From IMG/VR virus record IMGVR_UViG_3300020180_000013, positions 1-64,000 of that record: a stretch of DNA of 64,000 bases; one strand, 5' to 3'. This DNA comes from a virus. The notes beneath the pieces were generated by a model. That model saw nothing but the letters and a program-made list of their open reading frames with translations. It was not told where the DNA came from and did not search any database. The first letter of the stretch is position 1, and the number at the start of each line of letters is the position of its first letter. Shown piece by piece: positions 538-64,000 of this stretch. Made by a program: the position numbers and the translations under genes.

Positions 538-960
538 TTGAAAAGTTCTTTTAATAAAAGTAAATTAACTATTGTGGCAAAATTACCGGTAACTGTGGTG
601 TATAAAATAGATGAGGATGGAAATCTTCAACCTAATACAGAAGCAGATAGAATAATGAAAGATTTATTTAAGAAAGATTGTAAACAAGGAGAACTTGTAG
701 AGATAACTTATGAAATACAAAATAATGATCACTCATACGGTCAACTAAGTAAGGTGAAACCTATGGTAAGAGAATTAGCTGCAGAGACTGGAGTAACTTT
801 TATGGAAATGGAAAAGATAATTAAGGAGAAAGTTGGCTTAGTAAATTCTGATGGATCAGTTAAGTCATTTGGAGATTGTAGTAAACAAGAAGTAAGTTCT
901 GCTATACAGGCTTGTGAAGAGTTAATGAGTTTTATACGACCAGCAATAGATGAGCAATGA
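538..960 (+). CDS. Hypothetical protein, possibly NinB/Orf-like; true start may be GTG at 574
   Basis: ORF track; the segment HSYGQLSKVKPMVRELAAETG...SFGDCSKQEVS loosely resembles NinB-family patterns. Confidence 0.45.
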   Translation: MKSSFNKSKLTIVAKLPVTVVYKIDEDGNLQPNTEADRIMKDLFKKDCKQGELVEITYEIQNNDHSYGQLSKVKPMVRELAAETGVTFMEMEKIIKEKVGLVNSDGSVKSFGDCSKQEVSSAIQACEELMSFIRPAIDEQ

Positions 961-1249
961 TACAGATTATCCAACAGAATTAGATCTTACTCTTATTGAG
1001 AAATGGGATCTAAAAGAACAAGGAGTATTAGAGTTATTAGAATTTGTAAAAAGTAAATGGTGGATGGCTGATTGGGGATTTATACTCTCTGGTGAAGAAG
1101 AATTCACTCTCTCATTATCTACTGGAGGATGGAGTGGAAATGAGGATATTATAAGAGCTCTTAAAAAGAATTTTATATTCTGGAGTATGTATTGGCAGAT
1201 GAATAGAAGAGGAGGACATTATCAATTTAAGATTACTCTTTCAAAATAG
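950..1249 (+). CDS. Hypothetical phage protein with a TGGWSGNE motif
   Basis: ORF overlapping the upstream gene; Trp/Gly-rich motifs. Confidence 0.6.
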   Translation: MSNDTDYPTELDLTLIEKWDLKEQGVLELLEFVKSKWWMADWGFILSGEEEFTLSLSTGGWSGNEDIIRALKKNFIFWSMYWQMNRRGGHYQFKITLSK

Positions 1250-1547
1250 ATTTTGAAACTGGGTCATATACCTTTTTTGTAATCTTATTTTGAGCTTTAG
1301 CTGCATCTTCATATTGATTACATAACCAGAGTATAGTATGCATGTGATATGTTAATGGGTCTTTATCAGCTTCTCCATTATTGATTTTAGCTATCAACTC
1401 AGAAAATTGCTGTACATTTTTAATAGGAAAGAAATGAAATAACATGGCTTGTAATCTTTGATATAGAACATTATCTACTGTGATTTGTATCTCAGTTCCA
1501 TTCTCTATAATATCTACTGGTATATGAGCACTAGTGTCTTCTGCCAT
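1233..1547 (-). CDS. Hypothetical protein, lone antisense gene in the early block; likely start ATG 1547
   Basis: Fills the gap between + genes; protein-like composition; TAnnTTTG box directly upstream. Confidence 0.65.
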   Translation of the reverse strand: MAEDTSAHIPVDIIENGTEIQITVDNVLYQRLQAMLFHFFPIKNVQQFSELIAKINNGEADKDPLTYHMHTILWLCNQYEDAAKAQNKITKKVYDPVSKSILKE

Positions 1548-1562
1548 GTGGTTTAGTTTTAA

Positions 1563-1570
1563 CAAATATA
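1563..1570 (-). promoter_or_regulatory. Bacteroidota-type -7 promoter box (TATATTTG)
   Basis: Exact TAnnTTTG match on the - strand, 15 nt upstream of ATG 1547. Confidence 0.5.
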
Positions 1571-1587
1571 ATTCAAAAAAGTAAGTT

Positions 1588-2304: not shown

Positions 2305-2384
2305 TGAAAACTTTATGGAATAGATTTTCAGATTGGTTTGATAAACATTTTGCATGGTTTTTTACTAATGGTAACAAAAACTAA
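2304..2384 (+). CDS. 26-aa aromatic micropeptide MKTLWNRFSDWFDKHFAWFFTNGNKN
   Basis: ATG overlaps the ung stop (TAATG); its stop lies 1 nt before the next ATG at 2386. Confidence 0.55.
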   Translation: MKTLWNRFSDWFDKHFAWFFTNGNKN

Positions 2385-2385
2385 T

Positions 2386-2607
2386 ATGACAGAAGAAGAA
2401 AAAATTAAGCTTAATAAACTTAAGCTCTTAAAAAAGACCAATGAAATGATCTTTATTCTTAGAGGAAAAAAGAGTTGGTTTTCAGATTTGGAAATTAATA
2501 ATCCAAGATTTGTGGATTTAATGGCTTCAGGAGTTAAAATGGCTTTTGATAAAACTATTGAGGCAATGAATGAGGAATTTGATAAACCTTTCAAAAGAAG
2601 AATATAA
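2386..2607 (+). CDS. Hypothetical protein; start revised to ATG 2386
   Basis: ORF track 2338..2607; the ATG at 2386 follows the micropeptide stop. Confidence 0.55.
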   Translation: MTEEEKIKLNKLKLLKKTNEMIFILRGKKSWFSDLEINNPRFVDLMASGVKMAFDKTIEAMNEEFDKPFKRRI

Positions 2608-2612
2608 TTACT

Positions 2613-2774: not shown

Positions 2775-2780
2775 TAAAAT

Positions 2781-3161: not shown

Positions 3162-3164
3162 TAT

Positions 3165-3407: not shown

Positions 3408-3437
3408 AAAAACCGGAGTTTTTACTTCCGGTTTTCT
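3406..3437 (+). terminator. Hairpin, putative intrinsic terminator
   Basis: aaaaccgga...tccggtttt inverted repeat immediately after the stop at 3407. Confidence 0.5.
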
Positions 3438-7207: not shown

Positions 7208-7212
7208 AAACT

Positions 7213-10744: not shown

Positions 10745-12070
10745 ATGATAAATAAACATGATTCATTAGCAAAAGCATGTAAGCAGCTCTGCCTTAAAGA
10801 GCCATTTTATGGATTGTTCTTAATGATGCTTAATAAAGAATGGAACAATACTAAAGTTCCAAGTGCCGGAGTAAGTAAGAATGGTATAAATTATCAGTTA
10901 ACAGTTAATGAAAATTTCTGGAATGGTCTTACTGAATTATGGCAGTTAATGATTATGAAGCATGAACTACTTCATATATCATTCTTTCATCTGGAGAATC
11001 AAGATAGGTTCCCGGATAAAGTAGTAGCTAATATAGCTATGGATATTGAGATCAATCAGTATATTGATCCATCTTGGCTTCCTTGTTTTGATGTAACTAC
11101 TAAAGAGTTTGAGGCTAAGTATACTCCTATTGCTAAAAAGTTAGCAGAAGATGTTAAAGATGGAGTTATTACAATGGAAGAGTATACTAAACAGATTCAT
11201 GCTATTCCTCCAAGAGGTGTGTATATCCAGGATTTTCCGGAATTGAAGTTAGAGCCTAAGAAAGGAACTAAGTATTACTATGATAAGTTAATGCAAGGTA
11301 AAGAGCAAAAAGAGAAAACCGGAAGTTCAGGATCCTCAGCTCTAGATAGTCTATTAGATCAAATGGATAGTGGACAACCTACAGTATGTGATCATGGCAC
11401 TTGGAAAGAGTTTGAAGCTATGTCAGAGACTGAAAAGAAGCTATTAAGAAGCCAGACTGATTTTCATCTTAAAGAAGTAGCTGATGCTATTACTAAAAGC
11501 CGGGGAACTATTCCAAGTGAGTTAGCTGATTACATTAGTAAGATAGATCACAAAGAGCCTCCTAAATTTGACTGGAAGGGGTATCTAAGAAGATTTACCG
11601 GTGGTTCTACTAAGATCTATACTAAGAAGCTTCATAGGAAGTATAATAAGAGATTTGAAGATAATCCGGGATTAAAGATTAAGCAAAAGAGACATGTTCT
11701 AGTAGCTGTAGATACTTCAGGATCTGTAAGTAAAAATGAACTTGAAGAATTCTTTCATGAGATCTATCATATACACAAAGGAGGCACTGAAGTAACAGTA
11801 GTCCAATGTGATGCTGCTATAGCTAAAATAGAACCTTTTAAAAAGGATACTGCAGATAAGATTAAAGTTCATGGCCGGGGAGGAACTAGTTTTGATCCTC
11901 CATGTGATTATTTTAATGAGAATCCTCATAAGTATAGCTGTATGATCTATTTTACTGATGGAGAAGCTCCAGCACCTGTAAATAAGATAAGAGGGAAGAT
12001 ACTATGGGTATTATCTAGTACATCTAATCTAAATGATAAATTACCGGGATTAAAAATAAAATTGAATTAA
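10745..12070 (+). CDS. HExxH metallopeptidase-like plus VWA domain protein (DUF2201-like), MoxR partner
   Basis: KHELLH; MIDAS motif VAVDTSGS; GRGGTSFDP; YFTDG. Confidence 0.88.
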   Translation: MINKHDSLAKACKQLCLKEPFYGLFLMMLNKEWNNTKVPSAGVSKNGINYQLTVNENFWNGLTELWQLMIMKHELLHISFFHLENQDRFPDKVVANIAMDIEINQYIDPSWLPCFDVTTKEFEAKYTPIAKKLAEDVKDGVITMEEYTKQIHAIPPRGVYIQDFPELKLEPKKGTKYYYDKLMQGKEQKEKTGSSGSSALDSLLDQMDSGQPTVCDHGTWKEFEAMSETEKKLLRSQTDFHLKEVADAITKSRGTIPSELADYISKIDHKEPPKFDWKGYLRRFTGGSTKIYTKKLHRKYNKRFEDNPGLKIKQKRHVLVAVDTSGSVSKNELEEFFHEIYHIHKGGTEVTVVQCDAAIAKIEPFKKDTADKIKVHGRGGTSFDPPCDYFNENPHKYSCMIYFTDGEAPAPVNKIRGKILWVLSSTSNLNDKLPGLKIKLN

Positions 12071-12324: not shown

Positions 12325-12352
12325 TAAACATTGCTTATCTGGAAGAGTTTTG

Positions 12353-12360
12353 TAACTTTG
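12353..12360 (+). promoter_or_regulatory. Bacteroidota-type -7 box (TAACTTTG) upstream of the intron endonuclease
   Basis: Exact TAnnTTTG match with a TTG about 20 nt upstream. Confidence 0.55.
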
Positions 12361-12379
12361 TAGACAAAACTTAACTAAG

Positions 12380-13195
12380 ATGAAAAATCTCTTCTATGAA
12401 CTAAAAGTAAATGAACTCAAATCTAAGTGTGGTGTATATATGATATCGTGTAAAGATCATAAATATATAGGTAGTAGTAAGTCTTTATATTCCCGGTTAA
12501 GGGAGCATAGAGGTGATATGCTATTGAATAACCATACTAATTCTTTCCTTCAAGCTTGTTATAATAAATATAGTGCTTCTGAAATATTTTATACTATTCT
12601 GGAACTTTGTTCTCCTGAAGAGAGAATATGTAAAGAAGCCTTATATATTAAACAGCTTGAGTCGGATATGAATATGCAGAATCCTGTTACTAAAACTTTA
12701 TCGAATATAAGTAAGAAAAAAATATCAAAATCATTGATAAAAGCTTACTTAGAAGGTAGAAAAGTTACTAAGCAGCAGAGTCCGGTAGAGATGTATGATC
12801 TGAATGGAAATTTCATCAAAGAGTATAATAGTAGTGATGAAGCAGCTAAAGAGAATGGAGTAAGTCCTCATACTATACAAATAGCAGCAAGTAAATATTA
12901 TGCTGGTAGATTATGTGGATTAAGAAGATTTAGATATAAATTTTCAAAATTTCCTCCAAAGAAATTCTCTTATGTTAGACCTCAGAGTATAACATCTAGA
13001 TTTGAGTTTGTAATAGTAGAACCTAATAATAATGTGATTAAGATAAAGTCTGGAGTAAAAAATATAAATCAGGCTATTGTTGATCAATTATTAAAAGGTA
13101 ATACTGAATTTAAGATTAAAGGATATCCCAAGGTCCCCTTTAAATCGGGTGAATTGCTGGAACAGCCTGAAAAGGCCAATCAGCAGCCAAGCTAA
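12380..13195 (+). CDS. Intron-encoded GIY-YIG homing endonuclease with a NUMOD1-like domain
   Basis: GVYMI...YIGSS...RLREH...E; PVEMYDLNGNFIKEYNSSDEAAKENG. Confidence 0.9.
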   Translation: MKNLFYELKVNELKSKCGVYMISCKDHKYIGSSKSLYSRLREHRGDMLLNNHTNSFLQACYNKYSASEIFYTILELCSPEERICKEALYIKQLESDMNMQNPVTKTLSNISKKKISKSLIKAYLEGRKVTKQQSPVEMYDLNGNFIKEYNSSDEAAKENGVSPHTIQIAASKYYAGRLCGLRRFRYKFSKFPPKKFSYVRPQSITSRFEFVIVEPNNNVIKIKSGVKNINQAIVDQLLKGNTEFKIKGYPKVPFKSGELLEQPEKANQQPS

Positions 13196-13367
13196 TCAGG
13201 AATGGTTAGAAGGTTCAACGACTAGTAGCATACCACCAGAAAGGTGATGAAGCTGCCAAGAGCTCCCGACAATAGTATAGCAAAACTATTGATGATATAG
13301 TCTGAACAGTAGCTATAAATAAAACTACTGAATTACAAGATAAAGAACTTGTAAGATAACAATATTG

Positions 13368-47297: not shown

Positions 47298-47390
47298 AGA
47301 TTATGTATGTGGGATAAAAATAGTACAATTTTATTACAAGTTTAAATTAAATTTAATATAAATCTTTAAGTTTAAACCTGTGATAATAAG

Positions 47391-49625: not shown

Positions 49626-49627
49626 TA

Positions 49628-51616
49628 TTAGTCTAAGTATTCAACATCATATCCCTGATTTTTCAGGTCTTGTATTTCAGTATCTGATAAGTAATATTCT
49701 CCTCCTTGATCATAAGATCCTCCATATTTTCTATACTGGCCGGCAGCTCCTGTAAATTGGGTTGGTATCATTTGATCAGCTCTGAAGTATCCTTGATTAA
49801 TATCATAATTTCCTCTTGATCCTGCATTACCCGGGGTACTTGTGAATACTTGATCAGCATGAGTTTTATCTCTTAATTGCTTCTCCCTAGTTTTTCTGTC
49901 TCTCGTATTAAAGATATTAGTCAATGCTTCCATGCCGAGTATACCCATATTGGCTTGATCTTCTCCTGACATTGTTCCTTGATTAAATTTAAAAGTAGAT
50001 GATGGAGGTGTTGAAGTTGTATTTGGTCCATACATATCTCCTGCTGCAGATTGTTGATTAAACTGAGCAGCTTGAACTGCTATAGCATTACTTTGTCCTT
50101 GTATGAGATCACTCTGATATCCTTGAAGTTGTTGATTGGTAGCATTAAGATCAGACTGAGTTCCCATATATGTAGTACTTGCATAAGGGTTCATTTCTGC
50201 TATAGGTGCCATATTGTTGGCATTAAGTAGTCTTGGATCATAACAAATAGAGAATGGATTATGCATATCTTCCTCACTACATACCGGTTTGTCATTCATT
50301 TCTCTACCAGTAACCTGAGTTCCGTCTTGTGCATATTGAGGAATAAATTTTCTTATATTATTTCCATCATTTTCTGGAGTAAAGAACTGATCATTTATAC
50401 CACCATCTTGTTTTTTATGAAATCCATGATGTTTTTTAAACGTCTTAGCTAAATTATATTGAGGAGATCCCGGAGGACATCCTGGTTTACCTAAAGGAGT
50501 ACATCTTCCTTTTTTAAGATTTTTAGGAATCCAATTTCCTCCCTTTTTCATATATCCCATATCTTCCATTCCACTAGTCATCTCAGCATCTGACATTATA
50601 GAACCATCTGGCATATGATGAAATGTAGCATGAGGAATCATCTCTTCATGTACAGCATCTAATGAGGTATTTTTTAACCAATCCATGAAATCATTTTTCT
50701 TTTCATCAAGCATATTACTTGAATTGAAATCTGTAGATCCTCCCTCTTGCATAGCTCCTCCACATTCTTTACAGGGAACTCCTCCCATGTTAAACATAAC
50801 AGGAGGAATGTTAAGATTATTAGTAGATCCTCCATAGTTGAATCCATATTTATTAGCTCCTGGTTTATGTATATTAATTCCAAGATTTTGTACACCTCTT
50901 CTTTGAGATTTAGGAACCGTAGGAGGATTAGTATATGGCTTTATCTGACCTATGTATGAATCAGAAGTAATATCAGAAGGATTATTATTAAGATTATTCA
51001 TTACCGGTTCTACAGGAAATGTAGCAGGAGGTTGTGTTGGAGGAGGTGTAGTTCTCTTAGCTTTAGGAGCAGACACATCAGGAGTATAATATGGATTATT
51101 AGGATTATTCCATTCTGGAGTACCTTGTGGAATTGTTTTATATGCTCTATAATCTCCTGAAGGAGTTAAGAATTGGGATGATCCAGCATCTTTGGTATAG
51201 CCTAATGCATATAACTGATCTGTTGATAAAGGTTGTTGACCAGATGGTAAATATTGACTTAATAAAGTAGGATCAAATCCTTTAGGATAACTTGTATTAG
51301 TTCCTCCTGTTTGGTAGTTTCCTTTTAATCGTTTCATATTATCTGATATTAAATTAGGACTGCCTCCTTGTTTTAGCTTTTTATACTGATTCATGATTTG
51401 TTTAGTTGCAGGAATTTCTAATACATGTGAATGATCTGGAAAATGATACTCTTCTCCTGGTTTAGCTAGTACTGGATCACCAGTACCATTCTCTCCCATT
51501 GGAATAAGAAGTAGTTTTTTATCTACTCCTTTCATAGTTATTCTATTAGAGTTTATAACATTAAATGGGTTATTAACATCCGGAGAATTTTTTTTATATC
51601 CTAAGTTAGAAAACAT
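49628..51616 (-). CDS. Low-complexity virion internal protein (662 aa) with repeated xxxGG motifs
   Basis: ITMKGV...PGEEYHFP...VLEIP N-terminal domain and many xxxGG motifs. Confidence 0.65.
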   Translation of the reverse strand: MFSNLGYKKNSPDVNNPFNVINSNRITMKGVDKKLLLIPMGENGTGDPVLAKPGEEYHFPDHSHVLEIPATKQIMNQYKKLKQGGSPNLISDNMKRLKGNYQTGGTNTSYPKGFDPTLLSQYLPSGQQPLSTDQLYALGYTKDAGSSQFLTPSGDYRAYKTIPQGTPEWNNPNNPYYTPDVSAPKAKRTTPPPTQPPATFPVEPVMNNLNNNPSDITSDSYIGQIKPYTNPPTVPKSQRRGVQNLGINIHKPGANKYGFNYGGSTNNLNIPPVMFNMGGVPCKECGGAMQEGGSTDFNSSNMLDEKKNDFMDWLKNTSLDAVHEEMIPHATFHHMPDGSIMSDAEMTSGMEDMGYMKKGGNWIPKNLKKGRCTPLGKPGCPPGSPQYNLAKTFKKHHGFHKKQDGGINDQFFTPENDGNNIRKFIPQYAQDGTQVTGREMNDKPVCSEEDMHNPFSICYDPRLLNANNMAPIAEMNPYASTTYMGTQSDLNATNQQLQGYQSDLIQGQSNAIAVQAAQFNQQSAAGDMYGPNTTSTPPSSTFKFNQGTMSGEDQANMGILGMEALTNIFNTRDRKTREKQLRDKTHADQVFTSTPGNAGSRGNYDINQGYFRADQMIPTQFTGAAGQYRKYGGSYDQGGEYYLSDTEIQDLKNQGYDVEYLD

Positions 51617-51618
51617 TA

Positions 51619-52266
51619 TTATAAAGATATACTATTTAGTCTCAATTTTCTTCTAGTTTCTATTTGTTTTTCTATAGATTCTCTAGTTCTAGGAATTCCT
51701 TTTAACTTATAATTGGATATTCCAGTCTTAGTTTTTATAATTTTTTCTATAGTTTCCTGAGAGTGACTTCTTCCTCTAAGTTTATCTCCTATTTTTTTTC
51801 TAGATTCTATAGATCTGGGAGTAGATGGACTCTTCCTTTTTATTCCCTCTAATTTTCTTCTTTTAACAGCTTCAGCTTTTCTTTTTAAGGTTTCTTCCGA
51901 TGGTTTATATCCTTTTTTAAATCCTCCTTTATTTTTAACTACATGGTTTCCTCTCCAGATACCTGATTTAAGTTGCATATTATATTCTGGATATAAATTA
52001 TCTAAATAATATTGTTCTCTAAAATATATTTCTTCTTTTTTACATAATTCTATAATAGAAAATTCAAAATTATCAGCTCCATATTTTTCATATGAATATT
52101 GTAAATGTTTATTATGATGTTTTTTTAAATTTAGCTTAGATAGATGTTGATTATATCTAGTTCTAAATGATATAGCACTTCCAATATAAAATTTTCCATT
52201 GATAATATTAGTTATTTTATATATTCCTGTACTATTAAAATTTATATAATCTCCTTGATAAATCAT
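51619..52266 (-). CDS. Free-standing GIY-YIG homing endonuclease with NUMOD3-like repeats
   Basis: TGIYKITNIINGKFYIGSA...R..QH...REQYYLD; repeats PSEETLKR, RSIESRKKIG, HSQETIEKI. Confidence 0.92.
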   Translation of the reverse strand: MIYQGDYINFNSTGIYKITNIINGKFYIGSAISFRTRYNQHLSKLNLKKHHNKHLQYSYEKYGADNFEFSIIELCKKEEIYFREQYYLDNLYPEYNMQLKSGIWRGNHVVKNKGGFKKGYKPSEETLKRKAEAVKRRKLEGIKRKSPSTPRSIESRKKIGDKLRGRSHSQETIEKIIKTKTGISNYKLKGIPRTRESIEKQIETRRKLRLNSISL

Positions 52267-55200
52267 CGTTTAGATTCTAGTAATTTGGTTATTGCAATTT
52301 TTACAATCATTTTTACGTCACCTGATATTTTCCTTTGTAGGGACACGTAATTCAAATAGTGACGGAATTTTTTTCTTTCAAATGAATTCTTTTGATAATT
52401 AAGATTTAAAGGATTTAAGGTTCTTGTATATCCATTAGCATCATTAAGCCAGATTACTCTTTGGGCAGCTGAAAATTCTCCTCTATCATCTGTAATATCC
52501 CAGAAAGTATTAAATCTATATTTCTGTTCTACTTTACTATATAGTATATCAATATCTGTAGGATTAATTATAGGATAAAGTAGTCCCTTTATTGGATTGT
52601 TCTTTGGAGTAAGATTTAATTTTAATACTCCAGAGGTCTGCTCTGTGTTAGATATAATAGCCTGGTCAAAGTTAAAATCTAGTAATTGATATTTATTGAT
52701 TCCCGATAGATCATATTTATAACACTCCAGATAATACTCTAATGATCTTACTGTATTTACTATAGTCCCGGTAGAAGTTACATACTCTAATTCAAAAGGA
52801 TAATCTGTACCATAATAATTGCAGAAGCTATCTGTTCTATTATTGTGTCTCCATACCTCACCTTTCTTGGTGATAGGATTAGTAATAATAGACATAAAGT
52901 TATTCTTGCTTGGAATATATAGTTCCGGGTGCCAATCATGATGAGATACCCAACCACCATCTCCATTATTTGCTTTAGGACTGTAACTTACTGTCCAGGA
53001 AGCATCTTCAAAATATTGAGTATCTGTTAACTGAATTGGTGTGAATACTATATCCTGAGTATCATTTCCACTAATTAGTACTAAAGAACTACTTACTTCA
53101 TTATAAATGATCTGTCCTTTATATTGATCTCTAACTTTATAATCCTTCTTGCAGAAGTATATAGTCTCTAGTTGATTATCATAAATAGATTGACATCCTA
53201 TACCAATAACTGGGTTATCGGTGTGTGGATAATTAGGAATATCCTGAGTTAAGAAATAAGGTAAATACTTTTTAAACCAGAACTTTAATCCTGAAAATGT
53301 TATATCTTTTAATCCCTGAGTTAACCTGAATACTTTACCTTGGTTCTCACTAATATAATATAATCCAAATGGTGTATTTAATATACTAAGTCTATTTTGA
53401 CATGATCCATACTCCAAGGAGTCATCTGCATTACTAACTGATTGTAATGGCTGGGAAAATAATCCTCCATCCCCAATTGTTATCTTGGTTCCTAATGAAG
53501 TTTGAAGAGTATCTACTCCTTGAAACTCTATAGGAGAAGCTGTGTCAAAAAGAATAAGGGCCCCAGATTTATTTATGGGTTTAATAGCTGTGATCTTGCT
53601 TTTGAAATCTTTATAATTATTAGCTAGGAATACTCTCCAGTAATCTTTCTTGTTCTCTAGATTCTGAGGTAGTGAATATATAGCCCTAAATGGAAAATAA
53701 GAAAAACACTTTTCTGCTATGATAGGATCATAATCTCTTGGTTGTTGATTACCCCATGAAATAAAGTTTATAAATAATCTGGATATAGATAGAGATATAT
53801 CATACTTGAAGAAGTTCCCGGCCTTAATAATCTTTGGAGCAAATAAAGCTGCAGTATCAGTATATCTATATGGATCATAATGTCTTTCTGAATCTTCATT
53901 ACCCCAGTCTCTGAGTTCTGTATTAATCTCTGATTCTACAAAGAAGTCTCTTACTCCTGATTGAAATAAATAAAAATATGCATCTTTTAATCCAAATCTT
54001 AATGCTCCAAAAATATTACTTAATACAGAACTTCCATTACTGATTCTATCTAGATTAGCCCTACCTGAAGGAAGACCTTCAGTTAAAGAATTTATACTTA
54101 AAAAACCTGGACCAGGAGTAATAAAATTTAAAAATCCTGTAAGAAATTCTCCTGTTTCATACTTGGTGAAATCAGCCCAGTATCTAGGAAAGTTAACCAT
54201 GTATTTTAATCTATAATTAAACTCTGTTCCATCTGGTTGACCTAATAACCAATCATAGAAATAGAAAAAGGTATTCTTCTCTGTATATCTGGTGATATAA
54301 GTATCTCCTCCAAAGATCGGAGGAGTGGCTTGATCAGTTAATAATTGTTCTTCTGTAACCGGATCTATAGAGTCAAATACACAAGTAATAGGAATCTCCT
54401 GGATAGAAGTCATCTGTCCATATTGATTCTCTATTCTTACTTTCAGAGCTGCATAATAGGTTGTAGTTACTGTGGTAAATTCTTTATCTGGATCTTTTAA
54501 AGTTATTGCACCAGTACCTAGTAGTGCTGCAGTGCTTATACTCTGTACTGTATTATCAGATCCTAGAGGATATGAGATAGCCTTTGTAGGATCAATCTCA
54601 ATAGCTACTGCTCTTCCTCTATAAAGATTATTTATTCTATAATTACTCCCAAAATCTTGAAACTGATTATCAAGATAATTAGCTGATGTAATTAATCTCC
54701 TTGTGTTTCCAGGTACTGCATTTCCTGCAGAGAAGTTGTCATAAAATCCATGAGATCTATATCTATATGCATATTGTCTATATGGAACTAATGATTCTAT
54801 TAATCTTAAAGCAGTGTCTGTACCTAATGTCCAATAGTATCCAAGAGTTACTAAACCGGTTAATGCTTTAGTAATAGGTCCTAAATAATCAGATGTGGCT
54901 AATTCCACACTCTCTGTGGTAGTTCCTGCAGTTAATCCTGGAAGAGCTCCTGCAGTATATCCGGCTGCTATTAAAGCTGTATCAGTATTAGGTAGCCCTA
55001 CTGCATCTGCAAGTACATTAAGTAATGTCATTGATGTAGGAGTAATAACTAACTGAGTAAGACTTGAATAAGCACCTAAAGCTATAGGTGCAGTTATTAA
55101 TCCTGGATCAAATCCTCCTATTACAGGAGCTATGAAACTAGTAGTAGAAGATTGAGGAGCCTGGTAAGTACGTGTTCTTTGTCCTCTGACAGCAAGTGCT

Positions 55201-57305
55201 GCAGAAGCCAAGCCTAATATAGCAGCAAGTAGAAAGGATAAGTCTCCTAAAAGTTTTTCTTTAGGATGCTCTGGTACTTCTTCAAAGTTTCCTAATACTA
55301 TTCCATTAATTTCTCCATAGAGTTTTATTTCTTTTGCTGAAAGAAATGGATTTTTAAACTGAGTGTCCGGAGAATGGAATGTATAAGCTGATCTACTTGC
55401 ATTACCAAAGTATAATAGAGGAGTTTTTAATGCTCCTAATCCTCCGTTATCAGATTGATCTTGTGGAGATAGAGTAGGATCTGGATTACTTACAGTTGCA
55501 TTTATTGGATTATAAGGATAATTAGGATATAATCCTTGTTTTGTAGAAGGAGATAAAGAGTATGTTTTCATATTATTGATCATACCCTTTGCAATAATAG
55601 TCTTATTTCCCTCTCTGGATCCTCTTAATATTTCATAACCTACTATCCCGGGAATAAGATTTCCATGATTATCTCTAGGTGCTCTGATCTTATCAAACTG
55701 TACTCCTAGAACTCTAATCTCAATATTACCAGTTGCATCTTTCTTAAAGTGTTCTGTTACATTAGGTACTGATAAATTATCAGGCATCTTGTGATGTCTA
55801 ATAGGTTTACCACAAAGATTTACCGGCATGTCTCCAGGAAGTAAACTCCATGATATTCCACTTGAATCAACATGGCTTGTATCTGGGCCTGCAGGAGGAT
55901 TACTCTGATTCCAGATATCTGGTTTATTATCCGGATATATTTCAGTTGACTCCCAATAACTCATAAGACCTTCTCCTATAATAACTCCTCCATCTGGTAG
56001 TATTATATTGGGGATTGTATTACCTGTTGCTGTATTATATATTTTCCATCTTACATCTTCATCAGGAAATAGTTTATCATTACCTGCAGTAGCTGGTAGT
56101 AAATCAGTAGCTGTAGCTTCTCTACCAGGTATATGATAAGAAGAAGACTTGTCCCCTGTATTATACACCCATCTTATGAAGAACGGATATACTTCATCTC
56201 TTAAATAAGAAGTAACATTACCACCTTTTCTATAGTAGTCTGCAGGATATTTTACAGAAATCCATTTAGTTGTAATCCTATTGGCTAGTGGCTGATAGTT
56301 AAAATCAAACTTTGTGGTGGGGGCTACCCTAAGCATATAAGTCCCTGTTTCAAATACTGCTTCTGATTTATCATAAACAGGAGATCTGAAAGGAATTAGT
56401 TCAATAGGAATGCTGGGAAGACTTTCTGCTATCTGATCTAGAAATATCTGATTTGTTCTAGTAGAATATATTCCTATTCTTTTAGCTGATGTCTGTTGAT
56501 TTATAGTTCTTACTACTACTAATTCAAACTCATCAAAATGTTCTGTATCAATTGAGTTAATAGTAATGTTAAGTGAACCTGATAAATTCTCATGTTCAAA
56601 AATAGATTGAATATTAGATGGAGTAGAATAGTCAGTTACTCTCTGATCATTGATAGTATATCCTATTACTACAAAGTAGGATCCATTAGGAAGATTTCCT
56701 CCATTATGTCCTCTTGTAATACTTATACAAGGATTCTTTACAAATCTTGCTAATCTTAATTCTTCACAATCTAGATCAGTAGTAGGAGTACAGGTAATGC
56801 AATTATTAATAGTATTACAATTTTCAAGAAATGCCGGACTATTTATGTTAATAGTTCTTGTAGGAGCATTTCCATCATCCCAATAAGTCTGATAACTACA
56901 ATCAAAGTTTTGTTTGGATACTCCTTTAATAAGATATTTTCTATTGAATCCTAAACAGTTGGATGGATTCATTACTTGTCCAAGTGAGTTCTTAATAGGT
57001 GTATAACTACACTCACTATCATCAAATATTCCTATCTCTGAGTTAGTATCATCAGTTAGATACACTGCCCAGACATCACCATATAGATGAATAGTTCCTA
57101 TACAAGGATAAGGGAAAGTAACACATAATAAATTAGAAGGTTCATTAGATCTGGTATTAAGATCTCCTGTAACTGTGTACTCAGTTGCATTCCTAGCTCT
57201 TGTGTATGCTCCCTCTGGAATAGAGGACTCATTCACATCCATTATCAACCCTCTATTGAAAGATGCTCCTTTTTGACTACTTGTATTCTGAGGATCCTGA
57301 GCCAT
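52263..57305 (-). CDS. Muzzle / tail-stabilisation protein (P22 gp10-like), 1680 aa
   Basis: FNRGLIMD N-terminus, SYLRDEVYPFFIRW, GGDTYI, SWTVSY...WVSHHDWHP; lies next to ring genes. Confidence 0.82.
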   Translation of the reverse strand: MAQDPQNTSSQKGASFNRGLIMDVNESSIPEGAYTRARNATEYTVTGDLNTRSNEPSNLLCVTFPYPCIGTIHLYGDVWAVYLTDDTNSEIGIFDDSECSYTPIKNSLGQVMNPSNCLGFNRKYLIKGVSKQNFDCSYQTYWDDGNAPTRTININSPAFLENCNTINNCITCTPTTDLDCEELRLARFVKNPCISITRGHNGGNLPNGSYFVVIGYTINDQRVTDYSTPSNIQSIFEHENLSGSLNITINSIDTEHFDEFELVVVRTINQQTSAKRIGIYSTRTNQIFLDQIAESLPSIPIELIPFRSPVYDKSEAVFETGTYMLRVAPTTKFDFNYQPLANRITTKWISVKYPADYYRKGGNVTSYLRDEVYPFFIRWVYNTGDKSSSYHIPGREATATDLLPATAGNDKLFPDEDVRWKIYNTATGNTIPNIILPDGGVIIGEGLMSYWESTEIYPDNKPDIWNQSNPPAGPDTSHVDSSGISWSLLPGDMPVNLCGKPIRHHKMPDNLSVPNVTEHFKKDATGNIEIRVLGVQFDKIRAPRDNHGNLIPGIVGYEILRGSREGNKTIIAKGMINNMKTYSLSPSTKQGLYPNYPYNPINATVSNPDPTLSPQDQSDNGGLGALKTPLLYFGNASRSAYTFHSPDTQFKNPFLSAKEIKLYGEINGIVLGNFEEVPEHPKEKLLGDLSFLLAAILGLASAALAVRGQRTRTYQAPQSSTTSFIAPVIGGFDPGLITAPIALGAYSSLTQLVITPTSMTLLNVLADAVGLPNTDTALIAAGYTAGALPGLTAGTTTESVELATSDYLGPITKALTGLVTLGYYWTLGTDTALRLIESLVPYRQYAYRYRSHGFYDNFSAGNAVPGNTRRLITSANYLDNQFQDFGSNYRINNLYRGRAVAIEIDPTKAISYPLGSDNTVQSISTAALLGTGAITLKDPDKEFTTVTTTYYAALKVRIENQYGQMTSIQEIPITCVFDSIDPVTEEQLLTDQATPPIFGGDTYITRYTEKNTFFYFYDWLLGQPDGTEFNYRLKYMVNFPRYWADFTKYETGEFLTGFLNFITPGPGFLSINSLTEGLPSGRANLDRISNGSSVLSNIFGALRFGLKDAYFYLFQSGVRDFFVESEINTELRDWGNEDSERHYDPYRYTDTAALFAPKIIKAGNFFKYDISLSISRLFINFISWGNQQPRDYDPIIAEKCFSYFPFRAIYSLPQNLENKKDYWRVFLANNYKDFKSKITAIKPINKSGALILFDTASPIEFQGVDTLQTSLGTKITIGDGGLFSQPLQSVSNADDSLEYGSCQNRLSILNTPFGLYYISENQGKVFRLTQGLKDITFSGLKFWFKKYLPYFLTQDIPNYPHTDNPVIGIGCQSIYDNQLETIYFCKKDYKVRDQYKGQIIYNEVSSSLVLISGNDTQDIVFTPIQLTDTQYFEDASWTVSYSPKANNGDGGWVSHHDWHPELYIPSKNNFMSIITNPITKKGEVWRHNNRTDSFCNYYGTDYPFELEYVTSTGTIVNTVRSLEYYLECYKYDLSGINKYQLLDFNFDQAIISNTEQTSGVLKLNLTPKNNPIKGLLYPIINPTDIDILYSKVEQKYRFNTFWDITDDRGEFSAAQRVIWLNDANGYTRTLNPLNLNYQKNSFERKKFRHYLNYVSLQRKISGDVKMIVKIAITKLLESKR

Positions 57306-57307
57306 AC

Positions 57308-58333
57308 TTATACTGCATTATTATGTAAAAATCTTGGACTTGAACCTGGTGAATAACTAGAAAACATATCATAGTATTTAGAGTACATAGCTTTTCTATT
57401 GGTTTCCCACATCTTAGCCATTTCAGAGAAGTTAGGAGTATTGACAACTGTGAGAGCATTATTTCTTGCTCCTCTAAGTTTTTGTTGAACTAGTCCTAAT
57501 GCCTTTTCTACAGACTCATCTTCCATTAATAGATTTTCTAGTATCCTTTCTTTCAGAGCATATTCATAATATTCATTCATATATGGATGATCCGGAACTA
57601 ATATATTACCTGATTCATCTTCTAGTGCTCCTTCATAGTTGATATATACTTTTCCACACATCTCATTTCTAGTAGAGTGACTATTAGAATGATTTAGATT
57701 ATGATTTAGGCCATCATTAAACCATATGAATCCATTTTTTATAAATGCTTCATCTCTACACATCCAGTTAAGATTAGGACACTCACAATTTATATCATGT
57801 GAATTCTTAAATCTTATTGGATACATCATATTATAGCTCCTTGAAATAGTATTTATTACTTGAACTAATTGAAAGCCGGTAGTATTTTTACCACAGCTAT
57901 CTGTACATCTTGTAAGACAAATAGGAATGGTGGTATTAGGAGTTAATGTTGGTGTACATGCATCAATAACTACATCAGTACATGGATTAGGTTCTATTGG
58001 ATCTTGGTAAGTGGGAATAATATTTTTAATAGGAACTTCTTGTATGTTAGTTCCCTGGCCTGGTATAAAAGTCTCTGTAAAACTACCACATAATAGAGCA
58101 AAGTTCATGACCCTGAAATCCTCTGGAAGTCTTGCTTTTCCATTTACTATATCAAGAACTGTGTTCTTAACCATGTTAATCCTAAGACCAAGATCATAGT
58201 TACATCTAAGAGCAACTTTAATCAACTGCTGAGGTTCTATTTTTCCTTCTAGAGAATATGTTTTCATATCAACTCTAACACTCTCAAAGAGAGAATCAAA
58301 TGTCTGATACTTTAATGTGTAGTTGAAGTTCAT
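57308..58333 (-). CDS. Tail ring / tubular protein
   Basis: IVNGKARLPEDF...VYINYEG...DESGNILVPD...EYYEY pattern; position in the tail block. Confidence 0.72.
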   Translation of the reverse strand: MNFNYTLKYQTFDSLFESVRVDMKTYSLEGKIEPQQLIKVALRCNYDLGLRINMVKNTVLDIVNGKARLPEDFRVMNFALLCGSFTETFIPGQGTNIQEVPIKNIIPTYQDPIEPNPCTDVVIDACTPTLTPNTTIPICLTRCTDSCGKNTTGFQLVQVINTISRSYNMMYPIRFKNSHDINCECPNLNWMCRDEAFIKNGFIWFNDGLNHNLNHSNSHSTRNEMCGKVYINYEGALEDESGNILVPDHPYMNEYYEYALKERILENLLMEDESVEKALGLVQQKLRGARNNALTVVNTPNFSEMAKMWETNRKAMYSKYYDMFSSYSPGSSPRFLHNNAV

Positions 58334-58337
58334 AGTC

Positions 58338-59027
58338 TTATGTTCTTATAGTACCTTGTTTATCATCTGTATTAGGTTCAGAAGGTATTTGCATTACTCC
58401 AAATAGATCTTTTATTACAGCCTGCTCTATTTCTGCAAAGAGGAAATCCGGAATTGGAGTGACCTGATCTTGTCTTTGAGTACATGCTGAATCTCCTGAT
58501 CCATCAGCACATGTGAAAGTTACTAGATCATTTTCAAATATACCATCTACCATTACCGACTCCCAGTCTAAATTTGGAAAATATAAATACTCATTTATAT
58601 ACCAATAGTATTGTCTCTTGTTATACTTAAAGGTCGATGTCTTAGTCATTGAAGTATAAGTAGAAGGAGCTGTAGGAAATACTTCTTCCGATCCATCTAT
58701 AGAACTGATTGTTCTAAATAGTGGCCCAAATCTAGCTTCCATTATTCCTGGAACTTTCTCTTTACTTCTCTTAAATAAACAATCAGATGTCACTCCTCCA
58801 CAACAAGCTTCTATTCTATCTATTTCTATTAATTCCATACATGGAATAGTCCTGAATAGAGTACTGAATTTTATGAGTTGGTTCCTGCCTTCTTCTCTTT
58901 TAATATATAATTTAGCCCATTTAATTATAAGACTATATATAAATCTATCTGTAAGAAAGGAATCTTCTTTTACAGCCTTAACTGAGTTTCTTACCCGGGA
59001 TGTAGTAGCTCCTATTGTTGTTGCCAT
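58338..59027 (-). CDS. Tail ring protein
   Basis: LTDRFIYS...IPCMEL...YYWYINEYLY...GIFE...PIPD; position in the tail block. Confidence 0.7.
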   Translation of the reverse strand: MATTIGATTSRVRNSVKAVKEDSFLTDRFIYSLIIKWAKLYIKREEGRNQLIKFSTLFRTIPCMELIEIDRIEACCGGVTSDCLFKRSKEKVPGIMEARFGPLFRTISSIDGSEEVFPTAPSTYTSMTKTSTFKYNKRQYYWYINEYLYFPNLDWESVMVDGIFENDLVTFTCADGSGDSACTQRQDQVTPIPDFLFAEIEQAVIKDLFGVMQIPSEPNTDDKQGTIRT

Positions 59028-59618
59028 TTAATCAAAATTAAATTCATCATAATTAGTAAGATCAATTTCCTTAACTGGAATTACAAAATCTATATAAGGC
59101 TTGTTAGAAAAAAGTCTGGATGCTTTAACTCCACTTGCAAGATGAACAAATTTCTTGTAGTCTTTTCTAAACTCTTTTGAGCCTGCTCTCTTGAACTGTC
59201 TTACTGCAAAGAAGGACCAGAGTTCTCTATTTCTAAATTTGTATTTGGTTCCATAATTAGTATATATAATTTTTGCTAAATGATTATCACACTCCCAGTT
59301 CTTATGAAGAACTTTATGGCCGGCTTCTTCTGATCTTTTATAATCAATAACTTCTCTCTTGCTTGGATTACATCCTACTATAATAATATTTCCTAATCCT
59401 TCTCTTAATTTTACTCCATCTCTTAGTTCAACTATACTTTTCCAAATATTTTCATTATCCTTTTTTATAACTTTATTAAATATTTTATAATCTACATCTA
59501 TATACTGAGGATACTTTTCAGTAAATTGTTTAAATAACTCTTTAGATAATGAGTAGATATGTTTGTCTCTGAATCTGGGACCTTTAATATTTGGTTTTTT
59601 AACTACTGTAGAAGTCAT
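59028..59618 (-). CDS. IHF/HU-like DNA-binding protein
   Basis: Basic protein with IWKSIVELRDGVKLREGLGNIIIV; an IHF-like gene precedes the tail genes in crAss-like phages. Confidence 0.6.
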   Translation of the reverse strand: MTSTVVKKPNIKGPRFRDKHIYSLSKELFKQFTEKYPQYIDVDYKIFNKVIKKDNENIWKSIVELRDGVKLREGLGNIIIVGCNPSKREVIDYKRSEEAGHKVLHKNWECDNHLAKIIYTNYGTKYKFRNRELWSFFAVRQFKRAGSKEFRKDYKKFVHLASGVKASRLFSNKPYIDFVIPVKEIDLTNYDEFNFD

Positions 59619-59683
59619 GGATAGTTATAATTTACGAAAATTATCTGATATTAAAAAGTTTTACTAAGTTAATAAATAATATG

Positions 59684-59720
59684 AAAGAGAAAACCCCGAT
59701 TTTCACCGGGGTCTCTCTTT
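59684..59720. terminator. Intrinsic terminator, mainly for the - strand
   Basis: aaagagaaaaccccg-attttcac-cggggtctctcttt inverted repeat. Confidence 0.65.
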
Positions 59721-59757
59721 GAAAAAGCTACTGACTAAACCAACAAGTAGCAACTTT

Positions 59758-60282
59758 TTAAGCCAATGTCTCAACTAATAATGTCACTGAATAACAATTA
59801 CCTACAGTACATGTAGCATTAACTCTTATATGATATTCTTCATTTGGTATAAGTCCGGTAATAGTATCTGTGGTAGCTGTTGGACCAAGTAAAGGTCTTA
59901 ATATCCATACACCACTAGATGCTAGTTTGTACTCAACTTGATAGGTTAATACATCTGTTACTAAAGCCCACCCTGGAGTAATGCTAGTATTTGTGATAGA
60001 TATAATAGAAAGGGTATTCACAGAAGCACATGTTCCACCTGTAACACATCCCGGGTTAGTAGCCAATAGTATAAGTTTTTGAATAATAGAATTGAGTCTG
60101 TCTCCGGTATTAATAGGAACATCTACAATACTAGGGCCTGAGTATATGACACAATTAGCATCAAAGAATTCAGAACAAGGTTCAGGATTAGGACAGCTTG
60201 CATCTCCTGGACAAGGAAATGTAGGAACTGTAGTAAAAGCCTGATCTTTACAGCCACATGGGGCTTTATGTCCACAATTCAT
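59758..60282 (-). CDS. Cys-rich structural protein with a C-terminal fibronectin type III domain
   Basis: CVIYSGP module; ITNTSITPGW...YQVEYK...ITGLIPNEEYHIRV. Confidence 0.75.
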   Translation of the reverse strand: MNCGHKAPCGCKDQAFTTVPTFPCPGDASCPNPEPCSEFFDANCVIYSGPSIVDVPINTGDRLNSIIQKLILLATNPGCVTGGTCASVNTLSIISITNTSITPGWALVTDVLTYQVEYKLASSGVWILRPLLGPTATTDTITGLIPNEEYHIRVNATCTVGNCYSVTLLVETLA

Positions 60283-60713: not shown

Positions 60714-60715
60714 GA

Positions 60716-61258: not shown

Positions 61259-61325
61259 GATTGATTTAGTTTTATAATTATGATTGATTTAGTTTTATAA
61301 TTATGATTGATTTAGTTTTATAATT
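61257..61325. repeat. Three exact tandem copies of a 23-bp unit
   Basis: atgattgatttagttttataatt at 61257, 61280 and 61303. Confidence 0.95.
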
Positions 61326-62688
61326 ATACTACTGCTGCATCTACTACAAGAGTTCCTACTAATATAGTAGTATTTCCATTGATAGCCAAGTTAGCTACAG
61401 ATGTTCCATATACATGGACATTTTCAGCTGTAACACTATTTATAGAATTAGCTCCTGCTCCTGCAATAAGAGTGGTAGAGTTTAATATTAAAGTTGAAGC
61501 AAAATCTTTTCTAATTGCTTCTGTTGCTGCAGCTGGTGTTATAACTCTACAAGAGTTTAGTATTAGTACTCCACTACCAAAATTAATAACTGGTACAAAT
61601 AGTGTACTTGTTATAGTTCCTCCATTGACAATTATTTGTCCTCCTACAGCTGCTCCACTATTATTTACAGCAACTGCTCCTGCAGCACTACTACTTATAT
61701 CTCCATTAAATACACATCTTCCTGTAGATCCTAATTGATAACCATGTGCTGAAGCATTTGATCCTGATGTAGTATTTCCATTAACTGTAAGATTTCCGTA
61801 ACCTGTTGTAGTACCACATATACCAAGTGTATTTGTACTATTTCCATTAAGAATGGTTGATCCTGCAGAGATCACTATATTGGCAGCATTACTAGATGCA
61901 TTGATATTACCATTCATAGTTATAGTTCCTCCGGTATTGGTAATTGCTTGACCTGCTGAATTTGTGATATTTCCATTTAAAGTAGCAGTTCCTGCAGATA
62001 TTAAAATACCTCCACTAGTACTAACTATATTTCCATTGGAAACTAGTATACCTGCTTGTACTTGTATAGGTGTTCCATTAGTAGTATTTACAGTACCGTA
62101 AGTTGTTAGTGTACCGTTAGTAAGAAGAATAGTATTAAGAAGGTTGGAATTAAAATTATTAGCATATACTGTAACTACACTTCCTGCATTCTGAAGTCTA
62201 ATAGCATGGCCATTTGTTCCTGCTGTAGTTCTTTGTATAGTGTGGGCATTATATATAACACTATTACAAGCTATATTATTATCATCAATAGCAGCTAGTA
62301 CTCCTGCTGCCAGATCTATAGATCCTCCATTGAGGTCCCAATCAATAAAATTACCTAGAACTATGCCTTCTGCAGAATTAAAGTTTTTTACACTAATACT
62401 TATCCTTTTGGTAGCACTAGGAGTTAATGCTGCTGCTGCAATTGAAGCTGCTGCTTTGGTTAAAAAAGGCAAATCTGCCCTTTCAGCCAGACCAGTACTA
62501 TCTGATCCAAAACTTTCATCTACAAATACAGTATTTGAAACAGGTAATTGTAATGCTCCATCTCTTATATCTGCAAGAGTACATTGTAAAGCAGCAGTAC
62601 CTGGTCCTTGAACTACAGGGAAAATATCTGTTAAAGCTAGTGGTACTACAGCTAAGTTAAATTGATCGACTCTTTTATCTACTGCCAT
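61324..62688 (-). CDS. Tail fibre/spike with anchor module and right-handed beta-helix-like body
   Basis: VFVDESFGSDSTG...PFLTKAAA cap motif; repeated TLNGNI-type Gly/Asn/Thr rungs. Confidence 0.72.
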   Translation of the reverse strand: MAVDKRVDQFNLAVVPLALTDIFPVVQGPGTAALQCTLADIRDGALQLPVSNTVFVDESFGSDSTGLAERADLPFLTKAAASIAAAALTPSATKRISISVKNFNSAEGIVLGNFIDWDLNGGSIDLAAGVLAAIDDNNIACNSVIYNAHTIQRTTAGTNGHAIRLQNAGSVVTVYANNFNSNLLNTILLTNGTLTTYGTVNTTNGTPIQVQAGILVSNGNIVSTSGGILISAGTATLNGNITNSAGQAITNTGGTITMNGNINASSNAANIVISAGSTILNGNSTNTLGICGTTTGYGNLTVNGNTTSGSNASAHGYQLGSTGRCVFNGDISSSAAGAVAVNNSGAAVGGQIIVNGGTITSTLFVPVINFGSGVLILNSCRVITPAAATEAIRKDFASTLILNSTTLIAGAGANSINSVTAENVHVYGTSVANLAINGNTTILVGTLVVDAAVV

Positions 62689-62708
62689 TTTATTTAGTTT
62701 TTAAATTA

Positions 62709-63998
62709 TTATCCTAAAAGCCATTTTGATCCATCAAGTTGTAAGAAGTATCCTCTGGCCGGGTCTCCTGCTGTACCTGTCCATAACCAGAATGATCCCG
62801 GTAATGTAGATACTGTTCCAAAAGGACAGAAGATATCAACTCCATCTACAGTCACTACTGCTCTTATTTTATATGTAGTTCCTGAAGTCACACCTGCACC
62901 ACTAAATGTTCCACCTACTGGGCCTATTGCAGGATTAATGAAGTTCATAGAAGTTACCAAAGTAACTCCTGCTGCATCATACAACTGAATAGTATATGTT
63001 ATAGGTGTTCCTACTATATTATTAAATGTGAATGGAATGGTTGTCTCAGTAGGAGTAGTAGTTATAGTAGGACAAGCTGTAGTATTAACTATAGTATAAT
63101 TAATCTCTCTCTCACAGGTTGTATTAGTTGAAGGATTAGTCCAGCATCCAAATAGCTCAAGATTGAAATTACAAGCAAGGCTTAAAGGTGTTGCAGAAAT
63201 ATCTATTGAGTATCCTGGTATGTTATTAACATATGTTAATACCGGTATATTAGTAATTAACTGTGTTCCAAAACAATCTGTAATTATTAACTCATTTCCT
63301 GCAGAGAAGCAATCTATAAATCCTGCAGGTACTGAGCCGGTAAAGAATAGTGTAATTATTGTACCTGAGAAAGTAGCTGTCATATTAATTACTAAAGCCT
63401 CACATCCTGTAGGACAACATGTTTCTTGAATATTTTTAACTGCAGCTCTTAAATCACATATAGTGATCCACATGTTATTGATTGAGTCTGCTAGATCATT
63501 ATAATTTACTTGAGTGATCCATCCTGAGAGACTACCCATATTTACTCCAGGAAGTCCTAGTGACTGCTCTAGATCTAGACCGGCACATTGTTTCTGTATA
63601 GATAGAAATATATCATTAGGTGTTCCTGTTGCCGATCTGAGCTCGCAGAACTGTTGTTCTAAAGCTGCAACTATTGTAGATATTGGTACTGGATCAGAAG
63701 GTGGTGGAGTGATTACACAAACCGGAAACATTGTTACTTCTGGTTGTGGAACATCACTGCAGCAGTTTAATTCGATATAAGTTAACCTTGCTTCATGATT
63801 AGCAAGAGTCTGTTGTATAGTAGTAATAGTCTGTAGTATAGTGCAGATCTTATTTCCAATTGCAGTAACATAGTCTGTTAACTGCATTGTAGTGATCTGG
63901 TCTCCTAATTGATTTATAAAATAGAAACAAGGAGCAATATTAACTACACAATCAGGACATCCTGTAGGTGTAGGAGGAGCTTCTCCATTACAGCACTG
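62709..63998 (-). CDS. Cys-rich structural protein with coiled-coil and FN3/Ig-like domains; 5' end lies beyond the window
   Basis: The frame is open from 63998 (QCCNGEAPPTPTGCPDCVVNIAPCFYF...) through the ATG at 63887; C-terminal TTYKIRA FN3-like strand. Confidence 0.7.
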   Translation of the reverse strand, partial: QCCNGEAPPTPTGCPDCVVNIAPCFYFINQLGDQITTMQLTDYVTAIGNKICTILQTITTIQQTLANHEARLTYIELNCCSDVPQPEVTMFPVCVITPPPSDPVPISTIVAALEQQFCELRSATGTPNDIFLSIQKQCAGLDLEQSLGLPGVNMGSLSGWITQVNYNDLADSINNMWITICDLRAAVKNIQETCCPTGCEALVINMTATFSGTIITLFFTGSVPAGFIDCFSAGNELIITDCFGTQLITNIPVLTYVNNIPGYSIDISATPLSLACNFNLELFGCWTNPSTNTTCEREINYTIVNTTACPTITTTPTETTIPFTFNNIVGTPITYTIQLYDAAGVTLVTSMNFINPAIGPVGGTFSGAGVTSGTTYKIRAVVTVDGVDIFCPFGTVSTLPGSFWLWTGTAGDPARGYFLQLDGSKWLLG

Positions 63999-64000
63999 TT

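Follow-up and report, generated by a model that had tools for sequence, protein, structure and literature searches.

The genome of an uncultured crAss-like phage from microbial-mat metagenomes (IMG/VR virus record IMGVR_UViG_3300020180_000013) is almost purged of the dinucleotide CG, except where CG lies inside the palindrome CCGG. The window analysed here is the first 64 kb of this 96,195-bp record, whose completeness is put at 81% by CheckV. Comparisons among relatives of the phage point to selection against CG rather than loss of CG by mutation, and the exemption of CCGG behaves as a property of the whole 4-bp site. The preferred explanation, to which a probability of roughly 0.4 is given, is that a putative factor reads CG one strand at a time and that CCGG is masked from it by a host methylase of the HpaII/MspI type.

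The window contains 275 CG dinucleotides, an observed/expected ratio (o/e) of 0.17, which means that about five-sixths have been lost. CCGG holds 150 of the 275, with an o/e of 3.57 by base composition, and outside CCGG the o/e of CG is 0.09. GCGC, CCGC and CGCG are each at zero and the remaining NCGN tetramers have o/e values of 0.01-0.28. An earlier sequence-only reading of the window had claimed that CG is purged save in CCGG, that all nine CGs of the VWA gene lie in CCGG, that there is no GCGC or CGCG, and that the palindromes GATC, CTAG, AGCT and GGCC are abundant. All of this is borne out by the counts, the last four having o/e values of 1.84, 1.17, 2.02 and 1.33. The two features concerned are as follows.

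1-64000, no strand: genome-wide compositional signature, with CCGG evenly spread at 13-17 per 6 kb
10745-12070, plus strand: VWA/DUF2201 gene, with 9 CGs (from 10866 to 12044), 9 of 9 in CCGG

The signature runs on past the window, and the whole record has 418 CG and 205 CCGG. CCGG is the most over-represented of all tetramers in the record. It has no further flank preference, and all 10 hexamer flank classes are enriched (54 RCCGGY, 74 YCCGGR and 77 mixed). Words of the form C-Y-R-G are all enriched about 2.3-fold; CCAG/CTGG reaches an o/e of 2.26 (1.02 by a Markov expectation), the highest among six genomes. TG (o/e 1.01) and CA (0.90) are not in excess. The surplus is found in CT/AG, and over the whole record AG/CT are strongly enriched (1.34/1.39) and AC/GT depleted (0.73/0.83). 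Some candidate sources of CCGG were considered and rejected. A repeat element carrying CCGG is not found, as the 8-mers around the site vary and none has more than 5 copies. A cyanobacterial methylome signature is not present either, with CGATCG and HIP1 absent and RCCGGY not favoured over YCCGGR, and CCWGG is not avoided at Pro-Gly, where 75 of 96 pairs are CCWGG (147 CCWGG in the genome). As separate observations on word usage, the whole record has 68 copies of CTGCAG and 96 of AGATCT, and at codon boundaries T before G is disfavoured relative to A.

It could be supposed that positive selection maintains CCGG for a function in the phage, such as nicking, priming or packaging, or for a beneficial modification. 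The rank of CCGG among the tetramers and the excess of CCCGGG (18 observed vs 7.8 expected) are in keeping with this idea, and the spacing is slightly more even than random (coefficient of variation of the gaps 0.89 vs 0.99 +/- 0.07), but at p=0.06 the evenness is not significant. The positions of the sites are not conserved with the sister phage L003, which shares 2 of 17 of them, whereas tetramers on average reach 33%. CCGG is missing from close relatives whose replication and packaging genes are the same, and the C:T ratio at CCGG is just 1.2-1.45 times the neutral baseline. A functional role of this kind is very unlikely to account for the pattern.

The codon-level controls show that the effect is not a matter of protein content. 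The sequence-only reading had proposed a codon-preserving shuffle, under which CCGG might prove no more frequent than the other NCGN tetramers. When synonymous codons are shuffled within genes, 84 +/- 7 CCGG are expected and 200 are observed (z=16), and all 15 other NCGN tetramers fall under the shuffle mean, so the excess survives. Each of the three codon frames contains CCGG (84/80/36). Of 102 CCG codons 84 have G as the next base, and of 39 CGG codons 36 come after a C. CCG makes up 19% of Pro codons before G and 1-4% elsewhere, CGG makes up 21-22% of Arg codons after C and at most 0.5% elsewhere, and NCC codons amount to 8-28% before GGN and 1% before other G-initial codons. The presence of CCGG in all frames and its dependence across codon boundaries place the effect at the DNA level.

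The depletion of CG is nearly universal in the family, with o/e values of 0.08-0.4 in most of 90 relatives. The values rise weakly with G+C (rho 0.46), and such a rise has been described across bacteria (PMC11282364). Distant cultured or crAss-like relatives of similar G+C have CG o/e values of 0.34-0.38, and a gut crAss phage has 0.75. Together with the general enrichment of C-Y-R-G words, these values could be taken to mean that AT-rich genomes have a generic physical CpG deficit, from DNA mechanics or packaging, and that CCGG is spared because Pro and Gly codons force CC and GG. That this is the whole explanation is improbable. The synonymous shuffle keeps the Pro/Gly content and still leaves the CCGG excess in place, the o/e of CCGG spans 0.01-3.2 among relatives of equal G+C, and the flank weights considered below differ several-fold between close lineages, from 0.08 to 0.84 for a G before the CG (a(G)) and from 0.3 to 1.5 for a C (a(C)). 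One cultured distant relative, Cellulophaga phage phi17:2 (positions 40001-90000), lacks CCGG over 50 kb and has a CG o/e of 0.34, and it might serve in the laboratory as a model of the CG purge and the CCGG switch.

Flanking bases determine how strongly CG is avoided. A multiplicative flank model with four parameters, one weight per 5' neighbour of C applied to both strands, was fitted without CCGG. It reproduces all ten NCGN classes in three large relatives and predicts CCGG within 10%, the observed/predicted numbers being 175/184 in G003, 198/210 in G004 and 50/48 in G002. In these three phages the CCG half-site is already cost-free and there is no palindrome effect. T is the worst 5' flank in every lineage, and the other weights vary between lineages. 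In six genomes the weights are equal for sense 5' flanks and complementary sense 3' flanks, therefore the effect acts on duplex DNA and not on mRNA. For the mat phage the model fails in the CCGG class only, where 205 are observed and 34-35 predicted, a 6-fold excess. The exemption appears only when both flanks are present, so its unit is the 4-bp palindrome rather than the half-site, and 4-bp palindromic recognition is the simplest cause.

The same 6-fold excess of CCGG is found in an unrelated lineage (L050/L053), and the opposite state is found in other relatives. CCGG is nearly absent from G005 (1 in 118 kb, 7 predicted) and from G001 (2 in 67 kb, 17 predicted), which looks like restriction avoidance. 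L075 (CCGG 0; record G005) is the sister of L050/L053, in which the o/e of CCGG is 2.6-2.8. The status of the site thus flips between closely related phages, as is expected for avoidance of a Type II restriction site. G005 also has 3 GATATC vs about 37 expected, and GCATGC and GCGC are nearly absent from it; its losses of CCGG, GCGC, GATATC and GCATGC are ordinary Type II restriction avoidance. The depletion of CG is not confined to palindromes in this way, as all 15 non-CCGG NCGN tetramers are low, and the confined pattern is seen only for CCGG, GCGC and GATATC in G005 and G001.

Is CG lost by mutation or kept out by selection? The exchange tests were done on pairs of relatives, since even the nearest relatives of the mat phage in the collections reach an identity of only some 70-73%. 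Pairs at 80-86% identity are saturated, so that dinucleotide survival could not separate rates from equilibria, and flux-per-site tests were used instead. Between pairs at 88-99.6% identity there are 57 C/T differences before G. C/T exchange at TG sites runs at 0.20 of its per-site rate at TH, a 5-fold suppression of CG gain, and at CG sites it runs at only 1.5 times its per-site rate at CH. A hypermutable CpG should give ratios of about 1 and at least 5, and selection against CG ratios of about 0.2-0.4 and 2-3. The suppression ranges from 0.01 (TYGT) to 0.76 by tetramer and depends on both flanks. The reduced gains, the losses only slightly accelerated and the lack of a TG/CA excess point to selection against CG, not deamination of 5-methylcytosine (5mC), as the cause of the depletion. 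Contigs from four mat runs list 40 single-nucleotide differences on 40001-60000, one of which creates a CG and none of which lies in CCGG; these are too few for power.

The sequence-only reading had suggested 5mC deamination as one of two possible causes of the loss of CG, and this does not agree with the tests. One form of the idea would have all CpG methylated at C5 by an SssI-like enzyme of the host or phage and then deaminated to TG/CA, with CCGG shielded, for example by N4-methylation. In vertebrates and some Mollicutes deamination is what classically removes CpG, and where relatives differ at a CG, TG/CA takes its place in roughly half of the cases. Exchange of CG with CT/AG is, however, about as frequent as exchange with TG/CA, the rates of gain and loss are those given above, and no C5 methylase was found in the record or the complete relatives. 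The proposal is already disfavoured and has little chance of being correct. The phage shares a strong genome-wide CG deficit with genomes in which CG-specific C5 methylation erodes CG, those of vertebrates and of the Mollicutes with M.SssI or M.MpeI. It differs from them in having no excess of TG/CA and no CG methylase that could be found, and CG is not hypermutable in its relatives.

CCGG itself behaves as a neutral word in these comparisons. Per CTGG site, CTGG and CCGG exchange at 1.08 of the non-CG baseline between close relatives and at 0.90 of it where identity is 80-86%. In the mat phage the C:T ratio at the inner position of CYGG is 0.67, compared with 0.55 outside CG contexts and 0.00-0.10 in all other XYGZ. 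This ratio near the baseline and the free turnover of CCGG positions indicate that the CG of CCGG behaves as if uncounted.

The neutral exchange also bears on the earlier suggestion that CCGG is regenerated by Vsr-type very-short-patch (VSP) repair, in which a repair system tied to a host CCGG 5mC methylase would turn T:G mismatches in CTGG/CCAG back to CCGG. Lieb and, in 1992, Bhagwat and McClelland are reported to have shown that VSP repair works on phage DNA and biases oligonucleotide frequencies in E. coli, and the E. coli footprint reportedly described by Bhagwat and McClelland and by Merkl et al. in 1992 consists of over-represented CCWGG and rare CTAG. In the mat phage, as in that footprint, the target palindrome of the methylase is above expectation; CCGG exceeds the synonymous-shuffle expectation in every frame, and G-ending CCG before G and C-ending NCC before GG are 1.7-3.7 times above some neutral comparators. 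In contrast to E. coli, the T-containing precursors CTGG/CCAG are not depleted, being at the top of the six genomes, and T-to-C exchange at CTGG is at the baseline in relatives. In addition, the rise of the Arg codon CGG after C requires A-to-C transversions, which lie beyond T:G repair, and no Vsr was found in the phage. Vsr-type repair is therefore disfavoured, and it would be surprising if it proved to be the cause.

A search of the rest of the genome for methyltransferases and Vsr, which had been proposed with the sequence-only reading, gave no candidates. C5, N4/N6 and Dam-type methyltransferases and Vsr were not detected in the 96-kb record or in relatives that are 97-100% complete, which agrees with the earlier claim that the modification system is not encoded by the phage. 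The C5 methyltransferase family PF00145 is missing from the record (81% complete) and from five relatives, three of them 97-100% complete, and PF03852 (Vsr) is missing from the phage record. As for hypermodified bases, no ThyA-like or TGT/DpdA-like genes were found in the record or the complete relatives.

Why would a single palindrome be spared? The explanation preferred here has two layers. In the first, the whole environmental crAss-like lineage would be under a selection-like pressure against CG in double-stranded DNA, which is seen in the relatives and presumed for the mat phage. The cost of each CG would multiply on each strand according to the 5' neighbour of the C, with weights that are specific to the lineage, as might be expected if an evolving protein scanned each strand separately for N-C-G; a defence nuclease of the host or a sensor, with very short specificity, would be an example. 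In the second layer, which concerns the mat phage, a CG in a full CCGG palindrome would be free of cost. A host Type II methyltransferase like HpaII or MspI would methylate both strands of CCGG and so hide its CGs from the reader, and the sister lineages that are nearly without CCGG would face the matching restriction enzyme with unmodified DNA. Host methylation of the HpaII/MspI type would explain both the exemption that needs both flanks and the flip of CCGG between sister phages. Masking by a methylase should act on the whole palindrome with no further flank preference, and this is what is observed. The earlier claim that CG-targeting defences are avoided and that CCGG is protected therefore holds in part. 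The exclusion of CG operates on DNA and specifically leaves CCGG out, and avoidance of CG-targeting defences together with CCGG methylation is the best reading of these facts that we can infer.

Several points weigh against this explanation. The CG reader is hypothetical, and the host and its CCGG methyltransferase are putative. The selection test comes from relatives at 80-99.6% identity and not from the mat phage. Two codon comparators put CCGG 2-4 times above simple neutrality, one of them being the 19% of Pro codons that are CCG before G, compared with about 5% G-ending codons in other four-fold families, and the other the 21-22% of Arg codons that are CGG after C, which suggests that exemption alone does not fully account for the level of CCGG in codons. 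Part of the CG depletion may have a generic cause, given the G+C trend that the phages share with bacteria. The palindrome-level excess is almost solely one of CCGG, and in other lineages GCGC and ACGT show none, a surprising restriction if CG can be masked by any methylase of a host. Finally, the data can also be described as three mixed classes (ACGG, CCGA and CCGC) that lie about 2-fold below a model of the G003 type.

Another explanation involves no methylation; in it the host CG reader is intrinsically cooperative, needs at least one flank that is not C/G and does not recognise CCGG. The half-site that is already free in G003, G004 and G002, the departure of the mat phage from their pattern by the lower mixed classes alone, the near restriction of the palindrome excess to CCGG and the lack of a methyltransferase in any of the phages searched all fit such a reader. 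It is nonetheless unlikely. A reader of one strand, as the multiplicative fits imply, should lack synergy between the two flanks, and the 6-fold excess recurs in an unrelated lineage whose sister is without CCGG, for which host-strain-specific restriction-modification fits better. Methylation of CCGG by a host is the preferred account of the exemption.

The avoidance of Type II sites by phages is well documented, and restriction-site avoidance has been described in non-temperate phages by Rusinov et al. (2018, PMC6286503). The CG purge resembles it in that short words are removed by selection in a pattern specific to the host or lineage. Restriction-site avoidance is strongest at palindromic Type II sites (PMC6286503), and the near-absence of CCGG, GCGC and GATATC in G005 and G001 is a textbook case of it. 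The purge differs in that the avoided word is a dinucleotide with graded flank weights on each strand, that non-palindromic NCGN tetramers are purged as strongly as palindromic ones, and that one palindrome is exempt rather than avoided.

A CpG deficit without an excess of TG/CA has long been known in AT-rich bacteria and is unexplained (Forni et al., 2024, PMC11282364). As in these bacteria and their phages, the low CG of the mat phage comes with no TG/CA excess and is tied to G+C, and methylation is not thought to be the cause. The depletion is far more extreme here (0.17, and 0.09 outside CCGG), and here there are flank rules specific to the lineage, an exemption at the level of a palindrome, and selection against CG gains that is seen directly in relatives. 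Under-representation of CpG in AT-rich bacteria and their phages is reportedly also a feature of the genome signatures of Karlin.

In the literature searched, no selected, strand-wise and flank-graded purge of CG with an exemption at the level of a palindrome was found. The departure of CCGG from the strand-wise rule, its recurrence in a second lineage and the opposite state in sister lineages are new, and so are the flux tests by which selection is told apart from mutation and Vsr repair. Restriction systems classically leave their footprint in phages as motif avoidance, and the known systems read 4-8 bp. The present case is different, being a selected purge of a dinucleotide with graded, strand-wise and lineage-specific flanks and a palindrome that is "neutral" or "forbidden" in sister phages. 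Together these features point to an undescribed defence of very low specificity or to a principle of self/non-self discrimination. In its general form the proposal is that a DNA-targeting factor, either a host defence or a nuclease borne by a phage, reads only N-C-G strand-wise and selects on a global crAss-like lineage, that Type II methylation of CCGG gives immunity at the level of the palindrome, and that the genome records both the specificity of the reader and the methylome of the host. This broader form is put forward tentatively, as a possibility that is less likely than not. Host methylomes may then be readable from the genomes of uncultured phages. With >590 IMG/VR contigs from both lakes and mats the lineage is abundant, and the factor behind the purge would accordingly be widespread in the environment.

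Local exceptions to the purge are found in a diversity-generating retroelement (DGR) and in three homing-endonuclease regions.

231-299, plus strand: DGR variable repeat (VR), with 3 non-CCGG CGs at 245, 261 and 281
391-459, plus strand: DGR template repeat (TR), with no CG
12328-13364, plus strand: GIY-YIG + NUMOD1 homing-endonuclease region (open reading frame, ORF, 12380-13195), with 6 non-CCGG CGs in 1 kb
19342-20441, plus strand: LAGLIDADG homing-endonuclease region (ORF 19599-20411), with 4 non-CCGG CGs
51617-52400, minus strand: GIY-YIG homing-endonuclease region (ORF 51619-52266), with 5 non-CCGG CGs

Non-CCGG CGs reach 5.5/kb in these regions and 1.75/kb elsewhere (p=8e-5), a difference of about 3-fold. 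It had been suggested from the sequence that such CGs are concentrated in introns and in the DGR VR. The enrichment is real, but just 19 of the 125 non-CCGG CGs lie in these regions, and a search with Rfam gave no hit for group I introns at the gathering score. In the alignment of VR and TR, all three CGs of the VR come from adenines of the TR by change of CA to CG (TCAA>TCGG, TCAT>TCGT and ACAG>ACGG). Adenine mutagenesis makes the CGs of the VR, and the DGR therefore continually creates the dinucleotide that is excluded elsewhere in the genome. No reverse transcriptase was found in a Pfam sweep of the early region. The homing-endonuclease elements are plausibly recent arrivals or constrained RNA.

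The layout of the genes is that of crAss-like phages. A replication block with a DnaB-like helicase, a Toprim primase, PolA, an exonuclease and MoxR/VWA genes occupies 1-23.5 kb on the plus strand, and the minus strand carries the structural genes and those for giant virion proteins. Near-identical DNA is present in at least ten runs labelled "microbial mat metagenome". Relatives of the major capsid protein number >590 in IMG/VR, with amino-acid identities of about 85%, and its nearest cultured relatives, Leptolyngbya phage Lbo-JY46, the Cellulophaga phages and crAss cr124_1, are just 22-28% identical. A metagenome scan with the gene at the right end of the record, aimed at extending the record, found no relative.

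Phage contigs of the family have been deposited in metagenome-assembled genomes (MAGs) labelled Micavibrio, Clostridium, Rickettsiales, Campylobacteraceae, Pseudomonadales, Patescibacteria, Bacilli and Chitinophagaceae (L110-L124; at least 6 phyla). This placement is probably binning contamination, and host calls based on the taxonomy are probably unreliable. The two Chitinophagaceae MAGs have CG o/e values of 0.55-0.9 and another flank order, and no host is assignable. In the MAG labelled Rickettsiales the family phage contig is the 120-kb contig_1.

The large terminase (record positions 81370-84606, minus strand; L002:1370-4606) is unusually long at 1078 aa. Its terminase matches are split over two stretches and there is also a weak primase-like match, which suggests that it carries an insertion, either an intein or an extra domain. 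A hypervariable patch is found at 43440-43900 of the window, within a gene for a 1637-aa protein (39469-44382, minus strand). The patch has dense differences between samples and several tri-allelic positions, and the changes are not adenine-specific; the 20 kb that flank it are >99% identical between mat samples. At 45318-45384, 65 bp are swapped for a 17-nt sequence in three other samples, and a 9-nt insertion (TCTTTTTTC) follows position 46907 in two samples.

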